Below, in pieces: positions 3,552 to 29,213 of a stretch of DNA of 49,583 nucleotides. Made by a program: the position numbers and the translations under genes. Each line of letters opens with the position of its first letter. Position 1 is the stretch's first letter. This DNA comes from a virus. Taxonomy: Duplodnaviria > Heunggongvirae > Uroviricota > Caudoviricetes. The stretch lies in IMG/VR virus record IMGVR_UViG_2737471854_000004, positions 1 through 49,583 of that record; one strand, given 5' to 3'. The notes beneath the pieces were generated by a model that saw only the letters and a list, made by a program, of their open reading frames with translations, was not told where the DNA came from and did not search any database.

Positions 3552-5105
3552 TTAAACACTCGCCACGTTATACCAGGTGCCGTTAATCAGTTTCTGAAGC
3601 GGTCGGTAATACACGCCGTTGACGTTATCCGCTGAATTTTTACCAGTATCCGATATCGATATCCCTGACAATCCGTGTCCCGCAGGAGCGTGATATGTCC
3701 AAGAGATTACATTGCTGCCAGGTTTGTAATACATTTCGGAACCATAGCGCACATCCTGCACGCCGCCATTTCGCTGCTGATAACGGGCATCGAAATTTCC
3801 ATAGTTTGATGGGGTCATCTGTCCGTTTACAGCGAATGTGATACTGCCATCGGTATTTCTCTGGCTGTAAAAATGCCAGCCGGAATCATCACCAAGCTCT
3901 GCAACTACAGGTCGGGATGAATTACCCCATAAATTAAACGTTGCGTTTTTCGTGGAGTTGTTGGCGCTGGATAACGTGAATTTTTTAGCATTTCCGGCCT
4001 GAATATTTTTTAACGCTATCGCCACACCATTCTGGAAACGAAATACATGCTGTCCATTCGCATAAACATCCAGAATGCCGTCGCCGTTTTGTTTTATACC
4101 TGTATCGTTATCCCCGAAAGCAATTGAGTTTCCGCCCAGCGCGTTCTGAACGCCGATACCCAGTGCACCATTGACCTGAGAACCACCGCCAACAGACACT
4201 TTATGCGACATGGATATCTCTCCTGTCCGCAAATTAATGGTGAGCGGACGCAGGGGACCAATATCTCCATTCTCGCCCTGACCTTCACTAGTAGGGATAA
4301 GGTGCAGGCACTCTTCAGAACGGCGAAAAATAAGGCCAAAAGCCTCGTTAAAAATCCTCAATGCATTAACACCACGTATTTTCAGCTCCCCGGTCATCAA
4401 ATCACCAGATTTTTTTACATATCGCAGATCAAAATCTGAATAGATATTGCCGGGGTTTATCACACTGAAATAGCTTTTCTCGCTATCAAGAAGGCAAATC
4501 AAAGGAATACCCTTAATGATATCATTCGCTACCAGCTCGGACTTGTTCCCCTTATAAAGTGGGAACGTACCAAGAACCTTTCCGCCTAGTGTTAGTTGAA
4601 GTGTCGCCGCGTTGGTATTGTTCTGAACGGGGAAAACTATAATCGGGGTTCGTAGCGTCCAATCTGTACCTCCATTAACAAAAAACGTCGAGGGAAGTTC
4701 CAGCGTCAGTGCGTTTGCAGTGCCACCAGTAACACCCGCAATATAATGACCGCTCTGAAGCTGCGCTATCTGTACGAAATAGTTTTCCGAACCACGCGTG
4801 GCAAAGTTAGCCACAACATCATTAAGGGACCAACCTTTCGCGGTTGTTCCTTCCTGCCCACGAATGACTTTCAACACATCACCGCTTACCGATACCAAGT
4901 GACAAATCTCAAATGCAGACTCTTTATTATCGGTAAGCGTAATTTTTGCATAGACGCGTTGCCCGTTCGATTTATTTTCAAAATCGGCAGAAAGCAATTT
5001 TGCAAATTTAGCCCCTGTACCGGGCATTACCGGAATATCAGTCTGAATCGTGGTGATATCACCAGCCAGTGCTGAAACAACGTTATTGCCGAACCCAAGA
5101 ATCAT
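3552..5105 (-). CDS. Tail fibre protein
   Basis: 517 aa, Gly/Asn/Thr-rich, follows baseplate genes and precedes tfa with a 3-nt gap. Confidence 0.7.
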   Translation of the reverse strand: MILGFGNNVVSALAGDITTIQTDIPVMPGTGAKFAKLLSADFENKSNGQRVYAKITLTDNKESAFEICHLVSVSGDVLKVIRGQEGTTAKGWSLNDVVANFATRGSENYFVQIAQLQSGHYIAGVTGGTANALTLELPSTFFVNGGTDWTLRTPIIVFPVQNNTNAATLQLTLGGKVLGTFPLYKGNKSELVANDIIKGIPLICLLDSEKSYFSVINPGNIYSDFDLRYVKKSGDLMTGELKIRGVNALRIFNEAFGLIFRRSEECLHLIPTSEGQGENGDIGPLRPLTINLRTGEISMSHKVSVGGGSQVNGALGIGVQNALGGNSIAFGDNDTGIKQNGDGILDVYANGQHVFRFQNGVAIALKNIQAGNAKKFTLSSANNSTKNATFNLWGNSSRPVVAELGDDSGWHFYSQRNTDGSITFAVNGQMTPSNYGNFDARYQQRNGGVQDVRYGSEMYYKPGSNVISWTYHAPAGHGLSGISISDTGKNSADNVNGVYYRPLQKLINGTWYNVASV

Positions 5106-5728
5106 TTTTGAATCACCGTTGTTGCATAAGAATAAATAAAAGGGAGTTTTACATATTTCTGGTCAATGGCATCTTTCAGAAAATAGCCTATACCATCACC
5201 ATATTCTGGTATATGAATAGAAAAAACACTGTCCGACACAGTCACGCTCACATCAAAAGTGTGCTGCAACGGCGGGTCTATTCCATTTTTTCCATGAATG
5301 AACCGCGCCACACGGCGCTTTAACCAGTCAATGCAGAAATGCGAACCGTCAGCCTTATAAAAATTCCACGTTAATATTCGTTTGAAATAATCATCAGGAA
5401 CATACGATGCCTGCCCCGGAACGTAATTCCGCATTGCTGCATACGGGATCGTATTGTATTCAATGGTATCGTATGCGCCGCGTGCAATAGCCTCCTCGGA
5501 AACCTGTAGTAAAGGCCTTTCAACGCCATAAATCCCGAGTGCAATCCAGTCCAGCAATTGCCCGGTTATTGATTCCGATGTCCAGCATGGCAATGCCAGA
5601 TTGTTGAGTGAATCGAGGTATTCCTGAGCAATTTCATTGTATGCATCAAAGAACGCAACAACATTCGGATCATCTCTGTACTGCACAAATGGATAAGCAG
5701 GGAGAATTTTCTCAGTCAGATATTGCAT
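5102..5728 (-). CDS. Baseplate/tail protein (Mu gp48 / DUF2313-like)
   Basis: Position between baseplate J and tail fibre; start moved to the internal Met (MQYLTEK) to give a short overlap with the upstream gene. Confidence 0.45.
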   Translation of the reverse strand: MQYLTEKILPAYPFVQYRDDPNVVAFFDAYNEIAQEYLDSLNNLALPCWTSESITGQLLDWIALGIYGVERPLLQVSEEAIARGAYDTIEYNTIPYAAMRNYVPGQASYVPDDYFKRILTWNFYKADGSHFCIDWLKRRVARFIHGKNGIDPPLQHTFDVSVTVSDSVFSIHIPEYGDGIGYFLKDAIDQKYVKLPFIYSYATTVIQK

Positions 5729-6938
5729 ACTTGTTGACCTGAACCTGTGATGCCACCGTTGAAAAATAGGAATAGGTATCGCCATAAACCAGGCTTGTAT
5801 CTTTCGCCGGAAGAACAATGTGGCCGTTAATACCAATGCTCACACTGATTGTTGAGATCAACGTCGAATCAACCAGCAACCTGACAGAACTGGTAAAAAT
5901 ATCCTGGATACGCAGAAGATTTATCGGGTGTCCGACTTCAATTGAATTGATGTAATCAGCAACGTTTTGCTGCACAGCCATAGCAATACCCGCCGGATCA
6001 ACATAATCATCAGACACCGTGTTCCAGGTGATTAGCACCATGACGTTTTGTGATGACGGGATAACGAACGGCACCTGATAAACGTCCGGCGAAACGGTTA
6101 TTGAAACCGTGCGTTTTTCCACTGCCGCACCGGATGGATTGCTTACATCGTTGGTCAGTTTCGAAATATCCGGTACAGATTTGTAAATCGCATAAGCCAC
6201 ATCATACGGATCACCGCCACCAACAACCGCAACCCATTTCCCCAGCGACGACTGCCGGAAAGAAATCAGGTTTTCTCGCACACCGCTTACTGATTTGAGC
6301 ATCGCTTTAAAGCAATCCGGAGTTCCCTGCACACCAAACATGCCGGACTCCATGACTTCGGCGCGGTAAGATGCCCACGTCTGCGCCTCCTGACCTGGCA
6401 TCCCTGCGGTAAGGTTCGTGCATTTTACAGGCTGGTCTTTTGGTACTGAGGTAATAACCTGCGTCACAGTCCCTTCCGGCACAGCCCATGAGCCTGACGT
6501 TGTGGCCACACAGTAGACTGGTTCAGACTGCCCACTTTCCGGCACCACCGTATCGCGGGAAACTGCATACTGGTAGTTGCCATCACCGACAACAAATCCT
6601 TTAGGGATACCAAACCCCGGCAACGCCTCAAATACCACGTATACCGCAGTATTTGTACTTAATCCCTTCTGTGCTCCATAAATGTTTCCGAGTTGCATCA
6701 GTAACGGAATATTCGCACCGTATGGGCTTACGGAGTTAATAAGGTCCACCCGCGCCTGGTCTATTAATGCCAGCGCCCCGATAGCCGTGCTGGCAAGGTC
6801 TGTAATAAGTCCCGCCGGAAGGTTGGCTGTATATCTAGGTACTTTTTCAGCAACTCTGATGATAAGATTTGCAAGCAAATCATTGGGTGGCGTAGGCTGC
6901 GCCCCCGCACTGGTCATAGTAATTGGTATTTCTGACAT
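5712..6938 (-). CDS. Baseplate J-like protein
   Basis: 408 aa; size and position typical of baseplate J / Mu gp47 family upstream of the tail fibre. Confidence 0.55.
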   Translation of the reverse strand: MSEIPITMTSAGAQPTPPNDLLANLIIRVAEKVPRYTANLPAGLITDLASTAIGALALIDQARVDLINSVSPYGANIPLLMQLGNIYGAQKGLSTNTAVYVVFEALPGFGIPKGFVVGDGNYQYAVSRDTVVPESGQSEPVYCVATTSGSWAVPEGTVTQVITSVPKDQPVKCTNLTAGMPGQEAQTWASYRAEVMESGMFGVQGTPDCFKAMLKSVSGVRENLISFRQSSLGKWVAVVGGGDPYDVAYAIYKSVPDISKLTNDVSNPSGAAVEKRTVSITVSPDVYQVPFVIPSSQNVMVLITWNTVSDDYVDPAGIAMAVQQNVADYINSIEVGHPINLLRIQDIFTSSVRLLVDSTLISTISVSIGINGHIVLPAKDTSLVYGDTYSYFSTVASQVQVNKYAISD

Positions 6939-6949
6939 ATTTACTCCAT

Positions 6950-6977
6950 TAAAAAACCCGCTTTCGCGGGTTTTTTA
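6950..6977. terminator. Bidirectional intrinsic terminator hairpin
   Basis: AAAAAACCCGCtttcGCGGGTTTTTT: 6-bp GC stem flanked by an A-run and a T-run, so it reads as a terminator on both strands; sits directly after the cargo gene stop. Confidence 0.7.
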
Positions 6978-6978
6978 C

Positions 6979-8139
6979 TTATTCAACCTCTTCTAAACTG
7001 CTCACTCTGGACCCTCGGCGGAAATTATCATCATTTTTAACATACTCGTATGAATCCAGAATCAAACCAGATATGCGAAGTATATCTTCAGGATTAGTTA
7101 TATGTATCCTTTTACCATCCGTATCAAGTCGAGCTCGTCTTATTTCATTCAACTGAACTTCACTAAGCGAAATAGGTAAAGTTATAAATGAAGATTTTTT
7201 ATCATAAAATCTTAACAGCCATCTATTGGTTTTACCATTCAATAGTACGCCGAAATATGACTCAGTATCTTTATATTCTATATTATCTTCTGTTTGTATG
7301 ATTTGTTTTACCCTTTCAAATAGCTCCAATTCTTTGGCTGTGGTTATTATGTTGGGGTTTTCTTCATCAACAATGGCGTTATTAACTTGTGTATCCGTTG
7401 CATCATTTTCTTTAGTTTGCTCTACCGGTTGTGTAGATAGCCCGGAAACCACCATTGCGCTAACAGCGCGCTCAACGGCCTGTTTAACTAATGGAGTCAC
7501 GAACTCAAGAAATCTCTGATTAAGTTGTCTCTCAATATTTGAACGACTAGCAACATATCGAACAAACTCCAGATCAACTTCACGAAGACTAGAACTGATT
7601 GTTTTAGTAAATGAATTCAAATAAACACTTTCTTCAGCCAGTGTCCGTAAAGCCTCTGGTTTGAATTTATCATAACGAAAACGAAATAATTGTGTAATAT
7701 CGGAGTGAGTTAGAGAATCCATTCTTATTTTTAAAAACGGCGTTGAATCCATTATGTTTTTTTGTTTCAAATCCGTAAAAAAACGCCATTCAACACCATT
7801 TGTAATGGCTGATATAGTAACTTCCGGTGTTGAATTAAAATATCTTGATAGCTGTGGGCAGTGATTATCAATTTGTTCTGAAAACGATTTCGCCTCAATG
7901 AACATCACAGGAACATCATGACAAAATAAAGCGTAATCAACCCGTTCATTAGCCTTAACCCCGGGGAAGTCAGCACTATACTCAGCTTTGACTTTTCTTG
8001 GATCATACGGAGTAAAACCAAGAATATCTAGTAATGGCATAATGAGTGCTTGTTTTGTCGTTTCTTCAGTTGTACAAAACACCCCCATTTTTGCAACATG
8101 CTCTGTGTGTATTTTTAACTTATTTGCAAAATTTTCCAT
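6979..8139 (-). CDS. Cargo protein with N-terminal HsdR-N/Mrr-type PD-(D/E)xK nuclease-fold domain; C-terminal domain unknown
   Basis: ORF 6979..8154; GGAGG RBS favours the second ATG (MENFANK). Motif TEETTKQALIMPLLDILGF...VDYALF...VMFIEAKS...QLSRYF. AT-rich and non-overlapping, unlike its neighbours. Confidence 0.6.
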   Translation of the reverse strand: MENFANKLKIHTEHVAKMGVFCTTEETTKQALIMPLLDILGFTPYDPRKVKAEYSADFPGVKANERVDYALFCHDVPVMFIEAKSFSEQIDNHCPQLSRYFNSTPEVTISAITNGVEWRFFTDLKQKNIMDSTPFLKIRMDSLTHSDITQLFRFRYDKFKPEALRTLAEESVYLNSFTKTISSSLREVDLEFVRYVASRSNIERQLNQRFLEFVTPLVKQAVERAVSAMVVSGLSTQPVEQTKENDATDTQVNNAIVDEENPNIITTAKELELFERVKQIIQTEDNIEYKDTESYFGVLLNGKTNRWLLRFYDKKSSFITLPISLSEVQLNEIRRARLDTDGKRIHITNPEDILRISGLILDSYEYVKNDDNFRRGSRVSSLEEVE

Positions 8140-8288
8140 GCTTGTCTCCTCCATGGTAACAATATGTATTTTGCAAATCCGAAATAATATATGTCAATAT
8201 GCTCCAGCTTAGAAAATTACTCGCCCCCCTAAAATATCTCTCTACAGCACTCCAAACCAAGGTAAAAGTTTTATCATAAAACTGTGAT

Positions 8289-8636
8289 TCATACCGGCAC
8301 CTGCGTCCGGTAACTGGTCCCATTAAAAAACACAACATCGATGTTATAGGTGGGGTTATCTGCTCCATCTACCTTTGAAATTGCCAGTGATGCAAAATAC
8401 CCAGCAAACTGTTGCTGAACCATGTTCACATAGTAGTCTGGGTAAATCTGCTGCACGATGCACTGCTGCGCAGGAATACCGTAATTCGCGTAAAACGGCG
8501 ACTCCCCCAATCCCAGCTTTAACGTCTGAATGAGCGTCGTCAGCCAGCCGTAGGAGAAATCACCGTTGGCGTCAGATTCTACTGCAACCCATTTTTTGTT
8601 GCCGTTCGCGTCGGTGACGCGGCCCCATGTTCTCAT
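8289..8636 (-). CDS. Putative baseplate protein (gp46/gp25-position)
   Basis: 115 aa between the spike-like and J-like genes; assignment by position only. Confidence 0.35.
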   Translation of the reverse strand: MRTWGRVTDANGNKKWVAVESDANGDFSYGWLTTLIQTLKLGLGESPFYANYGIPAQQCIVQQIYPDYYVNMVQQQFAGYFASLAISKVDGADNPTYNIDVVFFNGTSYRTQVPV

Positions 8637-8836
8637 CGTGCCCCCATCACTTTAACTAACTCTGTCAGTACTGGTGAAAAGGCAAATGCTAAAGCTACGA
8701 GTGCAGCGGTGTAATACATGCGTCGTAAGGTATTGCTTTTTGCCACTAATTTTAAGGCTTTCACAATCCAGTCTCCTCCGCTAAAATTAATCACGGAAGA
8801 CCTCCAAACATACGTAATCATCCCTTGCGTATTCAA
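8633..8836 (-). CDS. Small hypothetical protein with hydrophobic segment
   Basis: 67-aa ORF overlapping the next gene by 4 nt; one predicted hydrophobic helix (AALVALAFAFSPVL). Confidence 0.3.
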   Translation of the reverse strand: MNTQGMITYVWRSSVINFSGGDWIVKALKLVAKSNTLRRMYYTAALVALAFAFSPVLTELVKVMGAR

Positions 8837-8847
8837 GGTGAGAAACA

Positions 8848-8885
8848 GAAAACCCCGACTGGGCCAACAGTCGGGGTTTTCGTTT
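8848..8885. terminator. Hairpin followed by T-runs (terminator-like, both strands)
   Basis: CCCCGACTGggccaaCAGTCGGGG followed by TTTTCGTTTT on the + strand and a T-rich run on the - strand. Confidence 0.5.
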
Positions 8886-8918
8886 TATGGTTAGAATTTA
8901 AAGTGAAATGAACCGGTA

Positions 8919-9632
8919 TTAACCAGGATTTGGTTTCTTCGACGTAATCGTGCTGCTGCCGCTTTGAACACCAGTCACATCGTGGCTGTGGCCGCTGACG
9001 CTCACGCCGTTGATAACTGCATCCATCTCGACATTAAGAGGACCAATCAGCGAAGCGGTTGTATCCTTCATCTGGGCTTTGTCCTGGACGATCGGTCCGT
9101 TGAGGTGAATTTTCCCGTTCAGGAAAATATCTTCGGCCTCGAGGTAAACAGCTTTCGACTTTTGCCTGATTTCTTCCAGAGCCACCATTACCGAGCTACT
9201 GCCGTCCTCTGTTTTGAGGATCGCGCCATCCGGACCGTACAAAACGATTTTTTGCGGATCTTCGTCGGACCACTCCTTGTTTGCCAGTGGCACGAAAAAC
9301 AGGGGAGTGAGCGACATCGAGTAAGAAAGCGTTGCCATACCGGTTCCCAATCCGGACACACCGCGCAGTGATACATCAGCGGCAATTGTTACTCCTCGAT
9401 CGCCCGGCTGTATCGGGTAACGGATATACGGGAATGTGGCGACAGGGATTGTTATCTGCGGGAAGTTGATCCCCTCCGGCAACATATCAAACTGAACTGT
9501 CACTATTTGCCCGCAGATATCGACAACATGGCAGGGCAATTCGCGGCCTTTAAGCTCGGCTTGTTGGTTACCAGAACTGGTCATCATCTCCGACAGTGTT
9601 CGGAGAAACGGTAATTTTTGAGCGTTTGACAT
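8919..9632 (-). CDS. Baseplate spike/assembly protein (gpV / Mu gp45-like)
   Basis: 237 aa; position between the hub-like and gp46-like genes. Confidence 0.5.
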   Translation of the reverse strand: MSNAQKLPFLRTLSEMMTSSGNQQAELKGRELPCHVVDICGQIVTVQFDMLPEGINFPQITIPVATFPYIRYPIQPGDRGVTIAADVSLRGVSGLGTGMATLSYSMSLTPLFFVPLANKEWSDEDPQKIVLYGPDGAILKTEDGSSSVMVALEEIRQKSKAVYLEAEDIFLNGKIHLNGPIVQDKAQMKDTTASLIGPLNVEMDAVINGVSVSGHSHDVTGVQSGSSTITSKKPNPG

Positions 9633-20114: not shown

Positions 20115-20823
20115 TGTTCAGGCTCCCTTGAGTGTTAATTTTTGCCAGACGACGCCCCGGAATTTTGAAAGCACTCAGCCAGACGTTCGGATCGCCCTGA
20201 TATTCAGTAATGCGACGTCCGGCTTCATCGTTGCGGATACGTTTATGAAGTTGCCCCTGCGTACTCATCATTTCTTTTTCGATGGACTGACGGGCGGCAC
20301 TGAAAATTGCGTCCTCAAGCACAGCCAGCGTTGCAGAATCCGCAATCGCGCGAATATTGACGTCCTTATGTGCCGGAGAGTGTTTCTGCATAGCGATTAG
20401 CGCACGCTTGCGGTAGTCCAGCGCATTTTCACCAGAAAACGGTGCTGGCGCGTTTTTACCGCAGGCACTGAATGCGGAGTCGGCTTTTGCCTGTGCTTCT
20501 GCCAGGGCTGAGTCATTGCGTTCTTTTTCTGCCTCCTCGGCAGCCTTACGCTGTTCTTCCGCTTCGGAATCAGCCTTTGCTTTCTCCTCAGCGTCTTTAG
20601 CTGCCGCCTCGTCAGCTTTGGCTTTTTCTTCCGCCTCCTTTGCCGCAGCTTCATCAGCTTTACGTTGTTCCTCTGCGGCTTCATCGGCTTTGGCCTTTTC
20701 TTCGGCCTCTTTTTTCGCCTGTTCTTCGGCATCCGCCCGCGCTTTGTCCCGCTGCTCCAGTGAGTCCATGCGCGTAACGACACCATCGATTTTCTGATTA
20801 ATGCCTTGCAGGGCATCGCTCAC
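20107..20823 (-). CDS. Putative scaffolding protein (coiled-coil, Ala/Glu/Lys repeats)
   Basis: 238 aa with tandem AEEKAKADEAA(A/E)(K/E) repeats; sits just upstream of the capsid block. Confidence 0.5.
   Translation of the reverse strand: MSDALQGINQKIDGVVTRMDSLEQRDKARADAEEQAKKEAEEKAKADEAAEEQRKADEAAAKEAEEKAKADEAAAKDAEEKAKADSEAEEQRKAAEEAEKERNDSALAEAQAKADSAFSACGKNAPAPFSGENALDYRKRALIAMQKHSPAHKDVNIRAIADSATLAVLEDAIFSAARQSIEKEMMSTQGQLHKRIRNDEAGRRITEYQGDPNVWLSAFKIPGRRLAKINTQGSLNNG
20480..20780. repeat. Tandem coding repeats (~33 bp) in the scaffold-like gene
   Basis: Repeated DNA unit gcttc(g/a)tcagctttggc(c/t)ttttcttc(c/g)gcctc visible on the + strand. Confidence 0.55.
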
Positions 20824-21428
20824 AACCCCTGTAACAGGGCCTGGAGTTCTTCTTTTTCCATCTCGATTTCACCTGTGTTTGTCACTTCAACCCCTGCGGG
20901 GATCCGGTCTTTATCCCACACACCCAGCGAGCCGTGGGCTTTCGTCACCAGGGCGATATGATCAACCAGGAAAGGAACGCCCTCGATTAAAAAATTGGTG
21001 TCACCTTCCTGTACTTCCACATTTCCTGATGTGCTGTTGAACACCACCGACGGACTTGTCGAAACATCCCCCTCAGTGATTTCTTCAACAATGCTCTGGA
21101 GGTAAACGCGGCACACCGCCCATACCTCATCACCCCGGATATACGGCAGCATGACGCTACCGACGATCCGCGATTTAAAATCCTCCTCCGTCAGAACTGC
21201 GTCGTCAGGATGGTTTGTGATAACCGGAAGGCCATTGCATCGCCTTAAAAACTCCTCGTTCAGATAGAGCTTTGGATCACGCCAGACGTGCTCTTTCAGC
21301 CCGGCGCGATAGGCAAGCCCGGTTCCGGTTATGCGCAAATTCACCAACCACATGTTGGAGAATTTCACCGGAGACGGTACGGTTCCGTCCCTGATGCGTT
21401 CTGCCACTTCAAGCTCGGTTAAACTCAC
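20820..21428 (-). CDS. Head morphogenesis-region protein (possible prohead protease or virion morphogenesis protein)
   Basis: 202 aa between the head-morphogenesis and scaffold genes; assignment by position only. Confidence 0.3.
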   Translation of the reverse strand: MSLTELEVAERIRDGTVPSPVKFSNMWLVNLRITGTGLAYRAGLKEHVWRDPKLYLNEEFLRRCNGLPVITNHPDDAVLTEEDFKSRIVGSVMLPYIRGDEVWAVCRVYLQSIVEEITEGDVSTSPSVVFNSTSGNVEVQEGDTNFLIEGVPFLVDHIALVTKAHGSLGVWDKDRIPAGVEVTNTGEIEMEKEELQALLQGL

Positions 21429-22242
21429 GTTTGCCCTTCTCCGTTAAAAATTCGTCGGGTAGTTTCTGAGGGGCGTAGATCGGCAGAGCATCGCAACTGC
21501 AATAAACCTCCTCCCCGGCAGCAGTGATTTCGTCATAAAAACCATATACGGGCTTAATAAGCCCCTGCTCCAGCGCCCACGAATCGCGGAGGAGATAAAT
21601 TTTCTCGTCGCGCTCTTTGTGGTCCTGTCGGTATTTGTAGCCCGGACGCCGCCAGTTAGAATGCCAGCGCAGAGCAATCGCACCACTCTGAACAGCCAGC
21701 AGATACTTAACGTTGCTCGCCAGCTTATGTCCCTGGTCAATTGCCACCCGGCGACTGATAAAATCCATATCCTTCACGGACTTCTGAAAACCGGACTTCA
21801 CTTCCCGGCGATCAATTTCGCTCACCCCGTCAGGCGGAATGGACGTAACCCATCCCTGAAAACGCTGTATGGTTTTCTCGATAGCCTGTTCGCGGTTGAG
21901 TTTTATCAGGTTGGCACTGGCGAAAATTCGCCTGTCGAGTTCCTTGCGAAACTCAGGTTTCAGTTTTTCAACAGTGATTTTTTTAGGGCCGTCAGGAGGC
22001 TGATCCCGTAATGCCCCGCCGTCGATGACAAGACGGCTGTAGATAGCGGTGAGATGTTTTCTGGCTACGGTATCATCAGGGGTTTCTCGCTGAGCGGCTA
22101 CACGGAGTTTCCGGCACCATTCGAGCAATGATTTTTCGCTATCCCACCCGTGATTTACGTAGTAGTTAACGGCATCCGTCAGAACCTCATACAGCGTCCT
22201 GATCCGTTTCTTCTTCCTCCCCGCCCGGCTGGAAATTGCCAT
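21409..22242 (-). CDS. Minor head / head morphogenesis protein (F-like)
   Basis: ORF 21409..22380 overlaps the portal by 193 nt; start moved to the internal Met (MAISS...). Immediately downstream of the portal. Confidence 0.4.
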   Translation of the reverse strand: MAISSRAGRKKKRIRTLYEVLTDAVNYYVNHGWDSEKSLLEWCRKLRVAAQRETPDDTVARKHLTAIYSRLVIDGGALRDQPPDGPKKITVEKLKPEFRKELDRRIFASANLIKLNREQAIEKTIQRFQGWVTSIPPDGVSEIDRREVKSGFQKSVKDMDFISRRVAIDQGHKLASNVKYLLAVQSGAIALRWHSNWRRPGYKYRQDHKERDEKIYLLRDSWALEQGLIKPVYGFYDEITAAGEEVYCSCDALPIYAPQKLPDEFLTEKGKREFNRA

Positions 22243-23626
22243 CAGGCGTCTCCTGCTTCGGTGGTTCATAATTCGCCAGGGCGTCCACATCAATGATGAG
22301 TGGAGCTTCGCCATAGGTCTGCGTGGCATTAACAAGGCTTGCCAGCCATTCAGTGACGGCGGCACGGTTTTCAGGATCAACCTGTAGCGACACGGCAGAG
22401 AAAAGTGCTATCGCCTGTTGAATCACTTTACTGTCGCTTTCCCGGCGTTTGTCCGGCGACTCCTCCACCAGCTCCTGCCACGTCGCGGTAAACTCGCGCC
22501 GCCACTGGTAAAACGTGGTTTTATAGTCCTCGGTTATGATGTCCGGGTAATCATTTTTCAGCGACTGATAAAATTCCTCGTTCCAGGCGATGTACTGCAC
22601 CAGGCGTTCGAAATAATCCATCACAGGTTCAATCTGCTGGCGTACACCATCGATATACTGGCTGATGGCTTTCGAGTCCTCGGTTCCTTCACCGAAACCA
22701 TTCGAGAAAGCCTCCTCCTTGATGAGAATCGCGGGAACATCGCTACCTGATGCAATATCGGAAATAATGTTGTCGCGGGCGGCATTTAGCGCGCCATCGA
22801 TGTTTTGTAAATTCAGCGAGGTAACGTCCTCATCCTTCCCGATACTAAGCACACCTTTATTTTTTGCCTCTTTGACATTTTCCCTTTTTCGTCCCGTGGC
22901 GGCAGCCATGATCCCGTCAAGTTTCGAACCATACTGCACAACTTTAGCCACCAGCACGCCTGCCTTCTGGCTGACGAGATCATTCGCCTCCATCGTATTG
23001 ATATAGGATTTCAGGGAATAAAGAACGCGCTGAAACACGCTTCGCCCGGTGAATCCGAACGATGAACTCTGAAACTCCAGATAAATCGGTGTGCCATTGA
23101 AAATTTTCAGTGTGCGTGACGGATGCCAGTCTTTTCCGCCAATCTTCAGCTTTTTATTGGCTTCCTGGAAAAACGGGCTGTTTGGGTTCTGGTCAGTCAC
23201 CATCGAACCAGAAGCGTTCAACGGGTCCCACGCGTTGATATACACATCATCTTCTGTCAGTCCGAATGTCGGAAGCGGCTCACGACATGGAACACTGTCG
23301 GTGCCCACGCCGATCGCTGCGGCACCGTAGCAACGAGACAGAAAAAACAGATTTTTAATCTTCTCGTTAACCTTCATACGTTCCCATACCTCCTGGAAAC
23401 GCCGCACAACCCGCTCGTCAGGGTCTGTCTCCACGTTGTACTGACGCGGCTTACACATCGCCATAAGTATGGGTTTTTCGACAAGTTTTCCGCCCAGAGG
23501 ATGGAATTGCCACAGCTGCTTACACAATTCATAGCCAATGTCGGTTCCCGGCTGAATTTCTTCAGCCTCAAGAATATGCATCAGTGCTGAACCGAGGCCG
23601 CCAGTAATCTCGATCTCTGCCATCAA
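22187..23626 (-). CDS. Portal protein
   Basis: 479 aa directly downstream of the large terminase; acidic C-terminus. Confidence 0.55.
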   Translation of the reverse strand: MMAEIEITGGLGSALMHILEAEEIQPGTDIGYELCKQLWQFHPLGGKLVEKPILMAMCKPRQYNVETDPDERVVRRFQEVWERMKVNEKIKNLFFLSRCYGAAAIGVGTDSVPCREPLPTFGLTEDDVYINAWDPLNASGSMVTDQNPNSPFFQEANKKLKIGGKDWHPSRTLKIFNGTPIYLEFQSSSFGFTGRSVFQRVLYSLKSYINTMEANDLVSQKAGVLVAKVVQYGSKLDGIMAAATGRKRENVKEAKNKGVLSIGKDEDVTSLNLQNIDGALNAARDNIISDIASGSDVPAILIKEEAFSNGFGEGTEDSKAISQYIDGVRQQIEPVMDYFERLVQYIAWNEEFYQSLKNDYPDIITEDYKTTFYQWRREFTATWQELVEESPDKRRESDSKVIQQAIALFSAVSLQVDPENRAAVTEWLASLVNATQTYGEAPLIIDVDALANYEPPKQETPDGNFQPGGEEEETDQDAV

Positions 23627-23640
23627 AAATATCCTGATTT

Positions 23641-24969
23641 TTACAACTCCGCGTAATTACCGTGCGCGATGATCAATCCATAGGTGTAACAATCGAAAAG
23701 GTCATCAGCACGTTTATGCGCGTCTTTATCCGCCAGGTGGAATCCGGCGATTTGTTTTATGAGGTGGTTTGCGGTGGTGCGCTTGAATGAAACGGTCTTG
23801 TCGTAAGCCTCCCGGACGATTTTGCACATCCCCTGATAGTGGTAGCTGGATGCCATCACCGCCCGTTCGTCTTTGCCCTTGCTGGTTAGTGCCGATTTAA
23901 TCGGCGTCATATCCCAGCCTTCGGTTTCCGCCTTCTGGTTGAGGATTGCCCCCATCGCGGCGTCTTCCATAAAAATTCCCTGGCTGCCCAGACGCGGACG
24001 GCATAATTTCGCGAGGCGCTCAAGGTTGTCATAAACGCCGGGGATATATTCAGGAAGCAATGACGCTTTAATTTGCGTAACATCCCAGTCAATAATCGTC
24101 AGTTTTGGCTCTTCCGAATACGTTGACTCATAAGCGAAATACAACACGCCAGTACCATCATTTTCGGTCCCGCCTTTCAGCGCCGTATCCATCACTGCGA
24201 AAATCATGTCGCAGTACGGCGGCATCTCAATCGGCTGACCGTCCACCAGCAGCTTATCGACATCGAGTAACGCGTCTTTGGACCAGTCCACGAACTCGGC
24301 AAGATATTCCTGCTGCCAGACGCGCGGATCGGATTTCTTCTCCGTTTCCTCCAGTTCTTCTTTCGGAATATACGGATTCGATGAAGTTGGCGCATGGTGC
24401 ATGACAAATCCCAGGGATTCATCGTGGCATATCGCGTAGAAAAAATTGCTCTCGTCGATACCGTTTGGTGTGGAAAATACCCACGCACAGCCGCGGTAAT
24501 CGACAAGCGTCGGGCGTATAGCTCGGGGCCAGATTTCCTCGAGCATTTCCGGCGATTTAGTGAATGCTGCCTCATCAATCAGCACAGCGTGATATTTACG
24601 CCCACGCCCGGCCAGTTTGTTATTGTCCGTTACCCAAAAGTCGATGCGCCCCCCATTACGGAGAATAATGCGCTTTTCATTTTTTGACTGGCTGAGGATC
24701 AGCGGTTGCAGAACGGCGCTAATTTCATCCCAGATTTCCTGGTACTGGCGGTATTGTGCGGTAAAAATCCCCACCCTACCCGCGATAAGTTGCCCGGTGG
24801 TAGGAACGGCAAATTTCCGCGTAGCGAAACTGGTAGCGATGTTTACCAGCATCACCGTTTTACCCCAGCGACGACCACAGCATACCGCGTGGAAGCGTTC
24901 CTCTATTGCCGCCGTCCATGCAGCTATTTGCCCCTCATGAGGTTTTGGGAGGTAGATTTCAATCGACAT
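23641..24969 (-). CDS. Terminase large subunit
   Basis: 442 aa; Walker A-like CCGRRWGKT and Walker B-like VLIDEAAF; C-terminal nuclease-like region with acidic residues. Confidence 0.8.
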   Translation of the reverse strand: MSIEIYLPKPHEGQIAAWTAAIEERFHAVCCGRRWGKTVMLVNIATSFATRKFAVPTTGQLIAGRVGIFTAQYRQYQEIWDEISAVLQPLILSQSKNEKRIILRNGGRIDFWVTDNNKLAGRGRKYHAVLIDEAAFTKSPEMLEEIWPRAIRPTLVDYRGCAWVFSTPNGIDESNFFYAICHDESLGFVMHHAPTSSNPYIPKEELEETEKKSDPRVWQQEYLAEFVDWSKDALLDVDKLLVDGQPIEMPPYCDMIFAVMDTALKGGTENDGTGVLYFAYESTYSEEPKLTIIDWDVTQIKASLLPEYIPGVYDNLERLAKLCRPRLGSQGIFMEDAAMGAILNQKAETEGWDMTPIKSALTSKGKDERAVMASSYHYQGMCKIVREAYDKTVSFKRTTANHLIKQIAGFHLADKDAHKRADDLFDCYTYGLIIAHGNYAEL

Positions 24970-26050
24970 TATCCACTCCCGGCATCGGCAGAGAGTTGTG
25001 GATAATTATTTCGTTATTCTCACCACCCACGCCTTTTTTGAGGTTTTCAATCTCAGTGCGCAGCTTTTCGTTGCGAAGCCTCAGTCCTTCAAGCTCCAGA
25101 TCATTGCGACTGTCAGTTGCACCACCAGCAGAACTTCCTTTCGTCGCCATTATCAGCTTGATAAGTTCGCGCCGGGCGGCAGCCTTATCCTCCAGCAGGA
25201 TCTCAACACCAAATTTCCCGAGCTTTGCCCCTGCATATAATTGTCGCGCATCCCCATCAAGCAGAGTGGTATCAGCCATATAAAGCTGTCCCGTTCCCTC
25301 ACCGCAGCACTTCGGACAATCCGGATTGGGTATGGCGTTATCAACAAAGCCGAGGCCTCCATATTCCGGCTCGGGTTTGCCATCTCTGGAGGCCTGTGCC
25401 GCTGCCTTATCGAATTCTGCAATATCACGCCACTGGTAGAGATGATTCTCGCCCCAGCAATAACGGCAGTTAACACGGCGAAATTGTGCCAACTGATTGG
25501 GGTCGGCCTGGACAATAGCCATCAACTGACTCACCAGTAAATCCAGGTCTGCGGTATAGCGTTTCTGATACTGATTGCGGAAGTAGCTGATAGCACGATA
25601 AACCCTGGCATTTCTAAGCATACGGCTGGCGTTGCTGTTAGCTGTCGCACCTTGCCCCTCATAACCAGCCAGTCGGTATGCCTCTGTCGGCTTTTTCCCC
25701 TGAGCAACAAGCATCGCAAACTTAGCCTGCTGGTCAGAAATGCCGAATTCATCGGGGCAGAACGAAAATTCCTCCGCGTCGCCCTCATTCAGGCACGCAT
25801 CGGATACTGGCTTTTTTTTCTGAGATTTTCCGTTCCGCTTTTGCGCAGTCTGCGCAGATTTTTTCTGCGCACTTTGTTGCGCAGTTTTGCGCATTTCTGT
25901 CTGCGCATTTTTCGGAGGTTTTTTGATGTAACGACGGGCTGTTGCGTAATTCAGTCCCCTTGCCTCACACCATGCCACCGGAGATACACCGGAGCGGGTG
26001 TATTCAGCAATATATTCCTGCTGCAACGCCCCCCAGTCCGGTCTGCTCAT
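24959..26050 (-). CDS. Terminase small subunit (with N-terminal HTH and a Cys-rich zinc-ribbon-like segment)
   Basis: 363 aa; central motif FAMLVAQGKKPTEAYRLAGYEGQGATANSNASRMLRNARV resembles the terminase small subunit signature; CxxC...CxxCC cluster; overlaps terminase large start. Confidence 0.55.
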   Translation of the reverse strand: MSRPDWGALQQEYIAEYTRSGVSPVAWCEARGLNYATARRYIKKPPKNAQTEMRKTAQQSAQKKSAQTAQKRNGKSQKKKPVSDACLNEGDAEEFSFCPDEFGISDQQAKFAMLVAQGKKPTEAYRLAGYEGQGATANSNASRMLRNARVYRAISYFRNQYQKRYTADLDLLVSQLMAIVQADPNQLAQFRRVNCRYCWGENHLYQWRDIAEFDKAAAQASRDGKPEPEYGGLGFVDNAIPNPDCPKCCGEGTGQLYMADTTLLDGDARQLYAGAKLGKFGVEILLEDKAAARRELIKLIMATKGSSAGGATDSRNDLELEGLRLRNEKLRTEIENLKKGVGGENNEIIIHNSLPMPGVDNVD

Positions 26051-26053
26051 TAG

Positions 26054-26305
26054 TTAGTCCTGATTTTTATCCACCCTGAGTAGTTCACGCAGGGCAAAGG
26101 CATCCCCTTTTCTGGCAAGCTTAAACAATGCCGCCCGTAGTTCGGCTTCACCTTTCGCTCTGCCCTTACGGATGGATGCGTAAAAATCTGTCATTGCTTC
26201 CCGATTTTCTTTCAGTCGGTTCAGATCAACATCCAGAACGTCAGCGATTTGTTGTGCAGTCATCCGGCACGCTGCCAGAGACTCGACTTTCGAATACGGA
26301 ATCAT
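26054..26305 (-). CDS. Small hypothetical protein (possible HTH)
   Basis: 83-aa ORF upstream of the small terminase; start uncertain because it overlaps the upstream gene by about 65 nt. Confidence 0.25.
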   Translation of the reverse strand: MIPYSKVESLAACRMTAQQIADVLDVDLNRLKENREAMTDFYASIRKGRAKGEAELRAALFKLARKGDAFALRELLRVDKNQD

Positions 26306-27194
26306 TTGTCACCCCCATTGATATGCAGGGTGTCTTCTTCCTGTATTTTTCGTGAAGGATTTTTACTGCAGCGTTGTTCCAAGTGACCTGATGGTGAATG
26401 CGTTTATGGCTGGCCCCCATCAGTGAGATTTTTACGCACGAGGGCGCATACATGACGGAGTAAAAACTTTTAACGTAGGTTCCGGAATCCAGATACAGCT
26501 CGGTCATTCCGCCGCTGTTTTTCTGCGTCTGTTTCTGCCCTAACTGGACAGCACCGATCGTCATAAACAATTCACCACAGCGACCGAGATTCGTGTACGT
26601 ATTCACATCCTCGTTAATGCGCCCCATGAATGAGAACGGTCGATCAACCGAACAGATAAAGCTGTTCATTGCCTTGCGTTTCACCCACGAAGCATGGCCG
26701 CCATTGTCACCAAGAAAATCCCCGCCCTGCGACATAGCGATGGAAAGCGCAGGTATTGATTCGTAGTACGCCAGCATTTCAGAAAGGATCGCATCCAGTT
26801 TTCTTATCGGGAAATAGGCCTGGTCATAGTTGCGATCCACCCGAAACTGGAACTCGTGATAATCATCATCGAGCTGAATGAAGTATTTACACCCGACCAG
26901 TTTTGCCAGGTCGAAACAGGCATTACGGGCGTAAAAAATTGAGCGGCGATCACCGAAATTATCGGCTTCGTCAAAACGACTGGCTATATCGGCTTTGGAA
27001 AACACCAGCACCTGTTCACCAAATTCAGCTATGTACTGATGCCGTGTCTTATCTTCATCATCAACAACGATAAAAACTTTCCCGGTATAGCCAGCACGAC
27101 GCAACGTCCGGTAAGTCAGAACTTTGTCCGGGCGCCCGTGAGTCAGAATAAAGGCGCAAAAATCATCACGCATATTCCTCCTCCTCCCCGCCAT
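26241..27194 (-). CDS. GT-A-like (DxD) putative glycosyltransferase/nucleotidyltransferase-fold protein
   Basis: 317 aa; N-terminal strand motif FILTHGRPDKV (resembles the GT2 'PTYNRP' strand) and hydrophobic-DDD motif YFIQLDDDY; no methyltransferase motifs seen. Confidence 0.35.
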   Translation of the reverse strand: MAGRRRNMRDDFCAFILTHGRPDKVLTYRTLRRAGYTGKVFIVVDDEDKTRHQYIAEFGEQVLVFSKADIASRFDEADNFGDRRSIFYARNACFDLAKLVGCKYFIQLDDDYHEFQFRVDRNYDQAYFPIRKLDAILSEMLAYYESIPALSIAMSQGGDFLGDNGGHASWVKRKAMNSFICSVDRPFSFMGRINEDVNTYTNLGRCGELFMTIGAVQLGQKQTQKNSGGMTELYLDSGTYVKSFYSVMYAPSCVKISLMGASHKRIHHQVTWNNAAVKILHEKYRKKTPCISMGVTNDSVFESRVSGSVPDDCTTNR

Positions 27195-27957
27195 GCATGA
27201 TCTCCACCATGCGCTGCGTCATCCGGACAAATCCATTTTCAATAGCCTGCTGATAATCAATGATCACCAGCGCCGACTCCTCAAAAAGGTTCTGAATTTC
27301 AGCGGGGGCGTGAGCGTAATAGTCCGCAATTCTGCTGAAATTAAACACCGTGTGACGTTCTGCCGCGCACAGGAGGAATTTTTCGATATCAGGCTCAAGG
27401 GACGCCGAACGTATCCGGCTGACCAGCTCCTGAGTTTTCGTATCGTCGCACAGTTCACTGATATCCGGTTTATCGCCTGACGGCTCATAAACAGGCGTAT
27501 CAATTTTCGTCGTGTACGGCTCCTCCTCATTTCCTGTACCTGGCAAAACATCCGTCAACAATTCATCAATTTCTGTTGGGCTGAATCCTGTCAGGGAGAC
27601 ATCAAAATCAGCATTGATTAGGTCCGACAGCTCCATCCGTAACAGATCTTCATCCCAGCCAGCATTCATCGGCAGGCGATTATCTGCCAGGCGGTACGCC
27701 TTTTTTTGGTCATCCGTCAGACCAGACAGAACAATGACCGGAACCGAATCCATTTTGAGCACTTCAGCCGCCATAACACGACCGTGACCCGCAATAATTT
27801 CGCCCTTTTCATCAATCAGCACTGGATTAGTCCAGCCGAATTGCTTAATGCTTTCTACCAGTTGTGCCACCTGCTCAGGGCTGTGTGTCCTGGCATTGTG
27901 TGCATACGGAGATAGTTCTTGTAACGGGCGATAGACGATCTTCAATTTCTCGCTCAT
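27166..27957 (-). CDS. ParB-like nuclease domain protein
   Basis: 263 aa; N-terminal region (...LIDEKGEIIAGHGRVMAAEVL...) matches the ParB/Srx N-terminal fold; acidic C-terminus. Confidence 0.6.
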   Translation of the reverse strand: MSEKLKIVYRPLQELSPYAHNARTHSPEQVAQLVESIKQFGWTNPVLIDEKGEIIAGHGRVMAAEVLKMDSVPVIVLSGLTDDQKKAYRLADNRLPMNAGWDEDLLRMELSDLINADFDVSLTGFSPTEIDELLTDVLPGTGNEEEPYTTKIDTPVYEPSGDKPDISELCDDTKTQELVSRIRSASLEPDIEKFLLCAAERHTVFNFSRIADYYAHAPAEIQNLFEESALVIIDYQQAIENGFVRMTQRMVEIMHGGEEEEYA

Positions 27958-28557
27958 ACAGCCTCGCTTTATGAATAAAAAAGCCCACTATCGGCCAGTG
28001 CGCTGGGTGCGCGGCGGGTGCTGATAACGAGCTTTGACATTATCGCAGCCCCTCACACTGAAGGGCTGCTGTAATGCCTGTTACTCACAAATCAAACGAG
28101 CATGCTGACCACTCATTTCAATGCGTAAGTATTGTGGCTTGCCGTCAATCAACGCGGTGATTAACTTGTCACCTGTAGGTGTCCACATAATTTTCTCCTG
28201 TTTTAATGCCCCTTGCCGCCAGGCAGTTGATCAAAGTTCATCTTGATTCGGCAAGATTTAGAATGAATAAGATAAAATTGGCACACGCAGCAGAATTTCA
28301 TACTTTCCGGACGCTGACGCACCCTTCATTTTTCAGCAAAATATTCTGCTATTACAGGCGATCAGTTCTGCATACACTGCCGAACACCGTCGACAATTTC
28401 ACAAACCTGAGAAGATGTATCGAAAAGCTGGCGCGCCTTATCCAGACTGACGCATCCCGCCAGAAAAAAGGCACCAGTATCGCTACCAGTGCCCATTTCG
28501 CCGCCGTTCGCGGCATTCTGTGTGTCCAGTGTTTTCTGCTCATAACACACCTGGTTA

Positions 28558-28941
28558 TCAGCGTTTCAACTGAAAGTGAGGCCCGTCTTTCAGTGTTTTC
28601 CAGTCCCCGCCCCATTCGATGGCAGTTCCCAGCTCTGCGGCAGCCTGCTTAAATGCCTGCGCGATTTTCTCGTACAGAGGCCAGTCCCATGACACCTGGC
28701 TGCCAACCCAGGCAACAACATCCACCGCATCACCGGTCAGGTGGCGGCTGTTCATGGTCTGGCTTTTCCCTTCCGCGACCAGCTGTTTCTGGCGTTCTTT
28801 CGTGCGCAGCCCTTCCGTAATACCGAAATCAACCTCCGTCAGCTCCAGCGCACGGCGAACGACAGCAACCAGCTGTGGTTTAACGCCCTCCAGATTTTTT
28901 TCACTGCGACGGCTGAATCTGAATTTACCCGACATATTCAC
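28558..28941 (-). CDS. Endolysin, peptidase M15 (L-alanyl-D-glutamate peptidase) family
   Basis: 127 aa with SRHLTGDAVDV ... GGDW ... DGPHFQL motifs, a zinc-peptidase signature known from phage endolysins. Confidence 0.8.
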   Translation of the reverse strand: MNMSGKFRFSRRSEKNLEGVKPQLVAVVRRALELTEVDFGITEGLRTKERQKQLVAEGKSQTMNSRHLTGDAVDVVAWVGSQVSWDWPLYEKIAQAFKQAAAELGTAIEWGGDWKTLKDGPHFQLKR

Positions 28942-29213
28942 CTCAACAATGGAAAGATTTTTGTGACGTTCCCGCGTGCGCGTATCACCAGCACGCAGAA
29001 CAGCAGGTTAAAAAACACTTCCAGCCAGCCCGTTGCTAACGGGCGACCACACAGATAGCTGAGGGGCGCAAAGGCATACAGCAGCATCAGCAGCCACGCC
29101 AGCCATGACATCAGCGGTTTATGTCTGGAATCACGGCGACGATAAAAAAAGAGCGTCAGCACGATAACCGTGCATAACGCTACATTCAGCAATCCGGGAA
29201 TGTTACTTAACAT
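28938..29213 (-). CDS. Small two-TM membrane protein in lysis cassette (holin/antiholin-like)
   Basis: ORF 28938..29267; two hydrophobic helices (LLNVALCTVIVLTLFF; WLAWLLMLLYAFAPL); between holin and endolysin. Confidence 0.4.
   Translation of the reverse strand: MLSNIPGLLNVALCTVIVLTLFFYRRRDSRHKPLMSWLAWLLMLLYAFAPLSYLCGRPLATGWLEVFFNLLFCVLVIRARGNVTKIFPLLR

Follow-up and report, generated by a model that had tools for sequence, protein, structure and literature searches.

A stand-alone nuclease gene carried as prophage cargo

Within the baseplate operon of an intact Rac-type lambdoid prophage of Escherichia coli, represented by positions 1 to 49,583 of IMG/VR virus record IMGVR_UViG_2737471854_000004 (this whole stretch of 49,583 nt is the window hereafter), we identified a discrete cargo cassette that holds one gene for a stand-alone HSDR_N-family nuclease. 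Our preferred reading, to which we assign a probability of roughly 0.55, is that this gene is a moron in a cargo hotspot and that its product is a single-polypeptide immunity (superinfection-exclusion) protein made by the lysogen, in which an effector nuclease is joined to a regulatory or sensor module. The repressor-linked position of the gene family, the strict conservation of its nuclease motifs, the lack of a partner gene in the contexts examined and the occasional presence of defence-like neighbours all point towards immunity or exclusion expressed in lysogens. The features of the cassette are as follows.

6944..8277, minus strand: cargo cassette (moron) of promoter-like region, one gene and terminator (from BLAST junctions, GC content and occupancy)
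6950..6977, both strands: bidirectional intrinsic-terminator-like hairpin AAAAAACCCGC-GAAA-GCGGGTTTTTT (perfect inverted repeat and folding)
6979..8154, minus strand: longest open reading frame (ORF), 391 amino acids (ORF listing)
6979..8139, minus strand: predicted coding sequence, 386 amino acids and stop, of the HSDR_N-family stand-alone nuclease (ribosome-binding-site spacing, RefSeq and PHROG match)
8148..8152, minus strand: GGAGG ribosome-binding site, 8 nt upstream of the ATG at 8139 (read from the sequence)
8168..8197, minus strand: predicted sigma-70 promoter-like site, TTGACA (8197-8192), 18 nt, CAAAAT (8173-8168), a 10/12 consensus match only

A variable cargo slot between conserved baseplate genes

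The prophage is positioned between ompN/uspF and intR, and over its structural genes the window shares about 99% identity with full-length prophages, among them that of strain GmM062. Its sequenced relatives include phage Rac-SA53, and a 4-kb query covering 5700-9700 was 100% identical to E. coli O155 NWU_3. Baseplate genes beside the slot follow a Mu-like order (hub, the 8919-9632 gene, the gp46-position gene and J), and the surrounding backbone comprises the features below, of which the 8289..8636 protein had no Pfam match.

5712..6938, minus strand: downstream backbone gene, baseplate J/gp47-family wedge protein (Baseplate_J 6.9e-8, phrog_6 1.3e-36)
8289..8636, minus strand: upstream backbone gene, 115 amino acids, homologue of Rac-SA53 rac59, Mu-gp46 position (phrog_7986 1.6e-64, function unknown; gp46/W-like identity by position alone)
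8848..8881, both strands: strong bidirectional backbone hairpin outside the cassette (14 bp, -26.8/-29.9 kcal/mol)
8919-9632: baseplate protein, bppV homologue, Mu-gp45 position (backbone)
9632-10639: hub (phrog_196)

Of the 100 E. coli genomes found to carry this backbone, 25 contained the cassette at 99.3-100% identity, and the remaining ~75 held other cargo, including Ant, LprI-family and hypothetical genes and further variants; no empty slot was seen among these relatives. The slot of Rac-SA53 and STEC367 holds an antirepressor and two hypothetical genes on the opposite strand, and that of ETEC4090 an LprI-family gene with an Ant remnant. The nuclease gene is thus exchanged for other cargo between the same flanking genes in related prophages, as phage morons are. 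A reading of the window made from its sequence alone (the sequence-only reading) had proposed that the gene is stand-alone cargo rather than a part of the virion, and had suggested comparing the gp46-J junction among related prophages; the comparison confirmed presence/absence variation, with unrelated genes filling the slot elsewhere. The two findings named there as arguing otherwise were not obtained, since relatives do not consistently have a homologue here and the protein model matches nuclease folds rather than baseplate proteins.

BLAST comparison with Rac-SA53, ETEC4090 and STEC367 placed the junctions between backbone and cargo at 6943/6944 and 8277/8278 (the ETEC4090 match stops at 6958). 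GC content fell to 0.34-0.39 over 6800-8400 compared with 0.46-0.55 in the flanks (about 35% against 48%), in agreement with the AT-rich block recognized earlier among the baseplate genes, whose proposed limits of 6950-8288 were correct to within about 10 nt. The 6944-8277 segment differs from its surroundings in base composition and has a clear terminator structure; its promoter-like site is a 10/12 consensus match that is partly conserved in other alleles. Among known cargo and exclusion systems, it can be compared with phage morons, as Hendrix and colleagues use the term, and with the rexAB genes of lambda and sieA-sieB of P22. Like a moron, the cassette has a deviant composition and flanking genes that in relatives either adjoin each other or enclose other cargo, and it would form a unit of predicted promoter, gene and terminator.

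The second hairpin, given as 8848..8885 in the sequence-only reading and regarded there as a flanking terminator, is real (8848-8881). It sits between the 8919-9632 baseplate gene and the small ORF and gp46-position gene, inside backbone homology in all three of the relatives compared (Rac-SA53, ETEC4090 and STEC367), so it is conserved backbone, separated from the nuclease cassette by two intervening genes, and not a flank of it. At the other end, the same-strand LprI-family cargo of ETEC4090 has an analogous 3' hairpin followed by the same ATGGAGTAA before J, whereas the opposite-strand Ant cargo of Rac-SA53 has no terminator at the J-side junction. By this comparison, the terminator-plus-ribosome-binding-site junction may be common to same-strand versions of the cargo rather than private to the nuclease gene.

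Several smaller observations concern the slot itself. A 12-nt perfect direct repeat, CCATTAAAAAAC, lies close to both cassette ends (6946-6957 and 8320-8331), and a 13-nt repeat, TTTTATCATAAAA, occurs at 7197-7209 and 8269-8281, its second copy spanning the 8277/8278 junction. These could be microhomologies for cargo exchange or chance occurrences in AT-rich DNA; as candidate mobility repeats at the cassette ends they were set aside, being short, AT-rich and compatible with chance. Backbone homology also breaks at 8651-8822, in the interval separating the gp46-position gene from the 8919-9632 baseplate gene, where E. coli STEC367 has a Rha-family gene and the window has a small ORF (8633-8836; annotated as 43 amino acids in GmM062, with a hydrophobic tail). 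As this variable stretch lies beside the nuclease slot, the Rac-type baseplate operon has two adjacent cargo slots. In NWU_3, which is otherwise 99.7-100% identical to the window, ~20 kb of tail, head, terminase and lysis genes (10452-30259) have been precisely deleted, and this degraded prophage still keeps the nuclease cassette.

Start codon and expression signals

The GGAGG at 8148-8152 overlaps codons 1-3 of the 391-amino-acid ORF and precedes a second ATG, at 8139, by 8 nt, which makes a 386-amino-acid product starting at 8139 the most likely one. RefSeq WP_000426902.1 (1161 nt; from the identical gene in E. coli O155 NWU_3) is the 386-amino-acid version, and the phrog_4225 match begins at residue 6 of the longer ORF. 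Thus the 6979..8154 frame and the GGAGG reported in the sequence-only reading both exist, with the 391-amino-acid product probably five residues too long.

Directly 3' of the nuclease stop codon, the 6950-6977 hairpin has a 12-bp perfect stem, a 4-nt loop and an A-run and a T-run on its flanks, with the GGAG/ATG of the J gene 11 nt further on. Its folding energy was -17.4 kcal/mol on the minus strand and -16.4 kcal/mol on the plus strand, bearing out the earlier description of a bidirectional terminator. A terminator consensus scan skipped this hairpin, apparently, in our own reading, because extension of the stem swallowed the T-run. Upstream, the region previously taken as the gene's own promoter region does contain a promoter-like TTGACA-18-CAAAAT arrangement (8197..8168), from which the gene could be transcribed autonomously.

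A perfect 11-nt inverted repeat, ATTTGCAAAAT/ATTTTGCAAAT, at 8122-8132 and 8168-8178 was also observed to enclose the ribosome-binding site and start codon, its 8168-8178 arm overlapping the predicted -10 element and its 8122-8132 arm spanning codons 3-6. As RNA, the stem had a folding energy of -15 kcal/mol (z = -2.67). Because it could form only on transcripts begun upstream, for instance by late read-through, it might silence translation of late transcripts; alternatively, the two arms might be an operator pair.

An intact HsdR/RecB-type nuclease domain

The protein is organized into four segments.

7735..8139, minus strand: residues 1-135, PD-(D/E)xK nuclease domain of HsdR/RecB type (Pfam, alignment, model), with motif residues D68 (7936-7938), E82 (7894-7896), K84 (7888-7890), Q96 (7852-7854) and Y100 (7840-7842)
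7435..7734, minus strand: residues 136-235, conserved, mostly helices at low confidence (alignment, model)
7354..7434, minus strand: residues 236-262, variable acidic disordered linker (predicted local distance difference test, pLDDT, <50)
7024..7353, minus strand: residues 263-372, compact acidic α/β C-terminal domain, α-β4-α-β-α (domain model)

Pfam matches to HSDR_N (5.6e-14) and HSDR_N_2 (2.4e-9), both above their gathering cut-offs, were confined to residues 25-133. In a family alignment of 77 members including the window protein (30-99% identity, Enterobacterales and Clostridia), D68, E82, K84, R99 and Y100 were invariant and Q96 was at least 90% conserved; a total of 86 positions were at least 90% conserved, with all catalytic residues among them. 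D68, E82 and K84 form the PD-(D/E)xK core and Q96...Y100 the QxxxY motif, Q96 following K84 by 12 residues, which is the same spacing as between K167 and Q179 in the numbering of EcoR124I. The QxxxY motif was defined for HsdR and RecB-family nucleases by Sisakova et al., and its mutation slows or abolishes cleavage by EcoR124I (PMC2475608).

AlphaFold2 modelling from the family alignment was confident over residues 1-155 (pLDDT about 90), and a Foldseek search of the full model against the PDB returned as its best match 3h1t, an HsdR fragment of V. vulnificus (probability 0.97), followed by EcoR124I HsdR. Interpretable matches of the full model were confined to the N-terminal domain, and those to an aminotransferase and AMPK were dismissed owing to their low probability. 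The structure prediction and fold search recommended in the sequence-only reading are therefore led by HsdR nuclease domains, and its assignment of an N-terminal PD-(D/E)xK fold holds, with HSDR_N/HSDR_N_2 matches and intact catalytic residues; the domain is of HsdR/RecB type with a QxxxY motif, not of Mrr type. Given its intact and conserved catalytic motifs, the nuclease is likely to be active.

Despite this relationship, the protein is not a Type I restriction enzyme. It shares with HsdR (EcoR124I, 3h1t) a nuclease domain from the same Pfam families, the D...ExK and subsequent QxxxY motifs and the best structural matches, but it lacks the superfamily 2 (SF2) helicase/translocase motor and the HsdR C-terminal helical domain, and instead has middle and C-terminal domains of its own. 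No Pfam match to an SF2 motor (ResIII/DEAD, Helicase_C) was detected in the window protein or its 76 relatives, even at E<=10, and neither hsdM nor hsdS is annotated in the NWU_3 locus (near-identical where retained) or in the full-length GmM062 prophage, flanks included. The sole NCBIfam match was local and reached 18.9 bits to a 1,123-position HsdR model with a cut-off of 729, ruling it out as a basis for Type I identity. Without a helicase motor and with no hsdM or hsdS seen, the protein cannot be a Type I enzyme, and 'type I restriction endonuclease', as RefSeq calls it, is a misnomer.

An accessory region with an acidic C-terminal domain

Downstream of the nuclease, the AlphaFold2 full model had poorly defined helices at 160-235, a disordered stretch at 236-255 and a confident fold at 262-370. 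Residues 136-235 had no Pfam or PDB match; they contain conserved AEE168-170, F192, R204 and P216, and possibly serve in oligomerization or coupling. The linker is poorly conserved and acidic (charge about -6.6 in the window copy), ranging across the family from 25 to 39 amino acids with a median isoelectric point (pI) of 4.07. In the C-terminal domain, D291, Y295, W307 and R310 were invariant among the 77 sequences. Modelled alone, this domain was predicted with a pLDDT of 90.6 and a predicted template modelling score (pTM) of 0.81, and its acidity is a family-wide trait (median pI 5.13, charge about -4).

Fold searches with the C-terminal domain gave weak matches, with no E-value reaching 0.001. 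Against the PDB these were to YdhG/DUF1801 structures 2oc6 and 9t2w (template modelling (TM) scores of 0.40-0.49) and to chain M of 6k4y, a T4 sigma-appropriation complex (TMq 0.43), which we took as MotA from its 209-amino-acid length; against BFVD they were to phage G Gp643 (TM 0.52), Acj61 MotA (probability 0.97) and Cronus MotA. The MotA C-terminal 'double-wing' and YdhG (DUF1801) folds are the only recurring matches, and the likeness to the MotA domain is limited by TM scores of 0.4-0.52, an absence of sequence similarity and the acidity of the nuclease's C-terminal domain, whereas that of MotA binds DNA. No Pfam family was found for the domain in the 77 members even at E<=10, scattered matches to Glycoprotein_B and UTP15_C being noise, and PDB sequence and profile searches (single sequence, C-terminal profile and whole-family profile) returned chance-level matches only (haemagglutinin, an antibody chain and chemoreceptors). 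A degenerate second nuclease domain, suggested by an α-β-β-β-α-β order, was rejected because no nuclease folds were matched.

The acidity of both the C-terminal domain and the linker argues against DNA binding of the MotA kind, a reading that we down-weighted, and favours a regulatory or sensor role through binding of a protein or ligand. A search with the middle and C-terminal regions against 1.84 billion representatives recovered 306 clusters, most of the full-length ones being 350-400 amino acids long and matched from about residue 135. HSDR_N was present in all eight of the unusually long relatives scanned, and the C-terminal domain was never found apart from HSDR_N in the proteins checked. 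In one relative (P0293, 509 amino acids), a TerD domain is fused in front of the HSDR_N and middle regions, perhaps a hint at what family members detect or interact with.

A widespread family found next to prophage repressors

The window protein matched phrog_4225 ('endonuclease') at 4.7e-149, over residues 6-375 of the 391-amino-acid ORF and all of the profile (positions 1-357 of 357), shares its domain order with the family and aligns over its full length with the 76 other members. We retrieved 1,356 homologues with the window protein (E<=1e-5) and 2,660 with a 37%-identical Clostridium phage protein, almost all of them 370-395 amino acids long with Pfam assignments at the N-terminal domain only. 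The family extends across Enterobacterales, Clostridia, streptococci, enterococci, Porphyromonas, Corynebacterium and Fusobacterium, with one sequence labelled Methanococcus, and a relative is encoded on 472 IMG/VR contigs. The sequence-only reading had suggested an uncharacterized single-gene factor: no functional study was found, and the protein is not an orphan but a full-length phrog_4225 member. The family is therefore already catalogued (phrog_4225; RefSeq and UniProt names) but mislabelled, and it is the accessory domain that is new.

Outside the Rac slot, genomic context was quantified in the best 54 IMG/VR loci. In 52 of these, the next gene upstream was on the same strand, and cI/LexA-type repressors with HTH_3 and Peptidase_S24 domains, ending 8-21 nt before the nuclease gene, accounted for 17-18 of the 31 distinct upstream proteins. 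A further class of 158-160 amino acids (about 28 loci, at a gap of about 170 nt) is RacR, its representative for 21 loci being 100% identical to RefSeq-annotated RacR. Individual genomes showed the same arrangement: the nuclease gene begins 22 nt past an HTH_3 and Peptidase_S24 repressor in four Citrobacter prophages, lies directly behind the repressor in Klebsiella phage KpF5, and follows racR in E. coli PCN061, a cI-like HTH gene in STEC384 and HTH regulators in Clostridium phage CWou-2020a. In pneumophage IPP25, the order is repressor, X, nuclease gene and integrase. The rexAB genes of lambda occupy the same position downstream of the repressor, and the nuclease family resembles rexAB and sieA-sieB in that its members usually come right after the prophage repressor gene, in the same orientation. 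It differs from the Rex and Sie proteins in having no sequence or fold kinship with them, its effector being a predicted soluble nuclease rather than a membrane protein.

Other alleles occupied different positions, of an accessory kind. A 77%-identical allele in an Stx2 phage (L009, E. coli JNEC-KY177) is antisense between Q and methyltransferase, tRNA and stx2 genes, an 87%-identical allele is antisense between Q and the lysis genes, and one is antisense beside AntA within a replication module. Further alleles neighbour HigBA, IS605 and ORF6N, or HicAB in Porphyromonas phages, and in Clostridium chromosomes the nuclease gene adjoins Schlafen-like helicase, nSTAND3 and MazG-like genes. In the contexts examined, neither a methyltransferase nor any other second gene was seen as a constant neighbour, so the nuclease appears to work alone. 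The ATATTGACA element of the window's promoter-like site also occurs upstream of two other alleles (L024 and L025), with a close variant, ATCTTGACG, in L009, and most of nine sampled alleles have a terminator-like hairpin of their own downstream; therefore, the mobile unit appears to consist of promoter, gene and terminator.

As side observations on these alleles, a common palindromic promoter-like region, TTGTCAAGC-N-(A/C)TTGAC(A/G), is present at 3800-4000 in both L024 and L025 and upstream of 7125 in L009. L024 and L025 additionally have a 9-10 nt inverted repeat, ATATATCCT...AGGATATAT, predicted to sequester the Shine-Dalgarno sequence, which suggests that the family is under tight expression control. 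The L009 allele lies within the region controlling Shiga-toxin expression.

Proposed function and alternative explanations

In our preferred reading of lysogen-made immunity, the cassette would be an autonomous promoter-gene-terminator unit lodged where the Rac-type late operon has a hotspot for cargo exchange by recombination, and the nuclease gene would be transcribed from its own predicted promoter while the prophage is repressed. The N-terminal HsdR/RecB-type PD-(D/E)xK domain would be the DNA-cutting effector, and the helical middle, acidic linker and acidic α/β domain would together act as a regulatory or sensor module limiting cleavage to infected cells or foreign DNA. That module would most likely bind a phage-derived trigger rather than generic DNA. 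In architecture, the protein resembles Shedu/SduA DUF4263, Type IV enzymes such as Mrr, McrA and GmrSD, and the many PD-(D/E)xK 'DS' systems of DefensePredictor, in which a PD-(D/E)xK effector is combined with an unrelated accessory domain in a single gene on mobile elements. Its C-terminal domain has no described counterpart in Shedu or the other single-protein nuclease defences. DefensePredictor reports PD-(D/E)xK domains in new contexts for 13 of the 42 E. coli systems that it newly validated (PMC13092281), and in the available part of its supplements the window protein and three E. coli paralogues were not found by accession. A comparative-genomics study of Campylobacter lists an HsdR_N-only protein that a phage-resistant strain has and a sensitive one lacks, its 'role unclear' (PMC8713573).

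Several points weigh against lysogen-made immunity. The promoter is a consensus match only, and the gene is co-directional with the late operon in the window, so late expression could accompany or replace expression in the lysogen. Genes adjacent to repressors can have other functions in lysogeny. Members of the family also occur outside mobile and defence contexts, a Gilliamella copy being solitary amid housekeeping genes, and the window protein matched nothing in PADLOC-DB 2.0.0 at E<=1, including its Shedu, PD-T4/T7/Lambda and PDC candidate models. The literature yielded no functional study of the family, with a prior description in Brenes & Laub 2025 (Cell Host Microbe) being possible. Finally, the fold matches of the C-terminal domain are weak (TM 0.4-0.52), and its best-annotated fold relative, the MotA C-terminal domain, binds DNA, so direct DNA recognition by the nuclease's own C-terminal domain is conceivable.

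This last point underlies the main mechanistic alternative, which we regard as unlikely and in which the protein performs Type IV-like (modification-dependent) or structure-specific restriction, its double-wing-like C-terminal domain reading DNA directly (for example, modified phage bases) and positioning the nuclease without a protein trigger. To our knowledge, the acidic character that this domain has throughout the family (median pI 5.1, charge about -4) is unlike that of DNA-binding domains, and with TM scores of 0.4-0.5, no E-value at 0.001 and no sequence match to known reader domains, the resemblance to the MotA C-terminal domain that speaks for this explanation is weak. Also in its favour, the nuclease is solitary, with no conserved methyltransferase partner seen, and the invariant D291, Y295, W307 and R310 could form a base-binding pocket. 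'Double-wing' folds (YjbR) are, furthermore, structurally related to the 5-methylcytosine-flipping McrB-N domain (PMC3424535).

Slightly less likely still is a nuclease that benefits the phage itself during lytic growth, through counter-defence, host takeover or recombination. In the window, the gene shares its strand with the late genes, so Q-antiterminated transcripts should include it, and nucleases are common in phage replication and recombination modules, inside one of which an allele was found. Against this, the gene is dispensable in ~75% of otherwise near-identical prophages, members of the family in most contexts point the same way as the repressor, or run antisense to lytic operons, with a terminator of their own, and a chromosomal copy has no phage nearby.

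We consider it very unlikely that the gene is a free-standing, homing-endonuclease-like selfish element that inserted between conserved structural genes by cutting an empty allele. Its homologues occupy many unrelated sites, mostly repressor-linked, instead of keeping to a single target gene. Various unrelated cargo (Ant, LprI-family and hypothetical genes) uses the slot as a general hotspot, no empty allele was seen there, and conservation of the cassette in carriers does not markedly exceed that of its flanks. T-even phages do have free-standing homing endonuclease genes inserted in such a manner, and precise insertion between conserved genes, own expression signals and low GC content would fit, as would the 12-nt direct repeat CCATTAAAAAAC near both ends, although AT-rich repeats so short plausibly arise by chance. 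An inert passenger or decaying hsdR remnant is scarcely credible: the RefSeq 'type I restriction endonuclease' name for a protein with the HsdR N-terminal domain only would accord with decay, but the reading frame is unbroken, conservation between phyla reaches at least 90% at 86 positions with the catalytic residues included, the length is constant at ~380 amino acids across over 1,300-2,600 homologues, and HsdR is never seen with the dedicated C-terminal domain. The anti-restriction factor also put forward in the sequence-only reading found no support and was rejected, since the catalytic residues are strictly conserved and the nuclease domain is not the part of HsdR that docks with the methyltransferase.

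Antitermination past the cassette

Transcription of the genes downstream of the cassette would depend on the following feature.

31550..32212, minus strand: Q-type late antiterminator (phrog_753 1.5e-78; DUF1133 1e-106; Phage_antitermQ 27.5 bits, cut-off 26)

A strong terminator 11 nt before J in 25 genomes (the prophages examined being full-length), the terminator of the LprI-family cargo and the 8848-8881 hairpin imply read-through. In lambdoid phages, polymerase modified by Q is well established to disregard terminators further downstream. The earlier inference that the downstream tail genes need antiterminated transcription is accordingly reasonable, a Q-type antiterminator being encoded at the expected position and a strong hairpin being internal to the backbone as well. 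During lytic growth, Q-modified RNA polymerase would pass the cassette terminator, so that J and the tail-fibre genes would still be expressed.

Implications for the family

More tentatively, and with a good deal of doubt, the family that combines HSDR_N with an acidic α/β domain might as a whole constitute a widespread and unrecognized form of single-protein immunity in temperate phages, typically co-transcribed with the repressor, whose C-terminal domain would be a new sensor of a superinfecting phage component and would release the nuclease. If so, new defence genes in various bacterial phyla could be predicted from their position downstream of cI. Should the family serve in defence, the system would be common, missed by current defence-annotation tools and mislabelled by RefSeq, and it could shape superinfection of strains with medically relevant prophages, such as the Stx2 phage; if it does not, the gene would be an ordinary moron with a nuclease of unknown use. 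The two-slot cargo hotspot of the Rac-type baseplate operon is useful for mining accessory genes.

Other features of the prophage

A second cargo island is located at 33800-39320, between the hokD region and the replication genes. It encodes a 473-amino-acid LA2681-type HEPN protein (34201-35622; Pfam 4.2e-31) with no PADLOC or PHROG match, a truncated integrase (36172-36645) and an ORF (37049-39319) annotated as 756 amino acids in NWU_3. In the window, the frame of this last ORF is open for ~480 codons and then contains many stops, so it is probably frameshifted or pseudogenized. The gene at 22187-23626 bears the RefSeq name 'anti-CBASS protein Acb1 family protein' in near-identical prophages; it matches portal proteins (phrog_146 1.1e-74; Pfam Phage_portal_3) and adjoins the terminase gene, and the Acb1 name is probably an annotation artefact. 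At the end of the prophage, past the tail-fibre genes, a YadA-like adhesin ORF (247-1497; RefSeq 'YadA-like family protein', with PHROG adhesin and tail matches) lies beside a very AT-rich stretch (1400-2000, GC 0.26-0.28), and this region looks like another cargo position.

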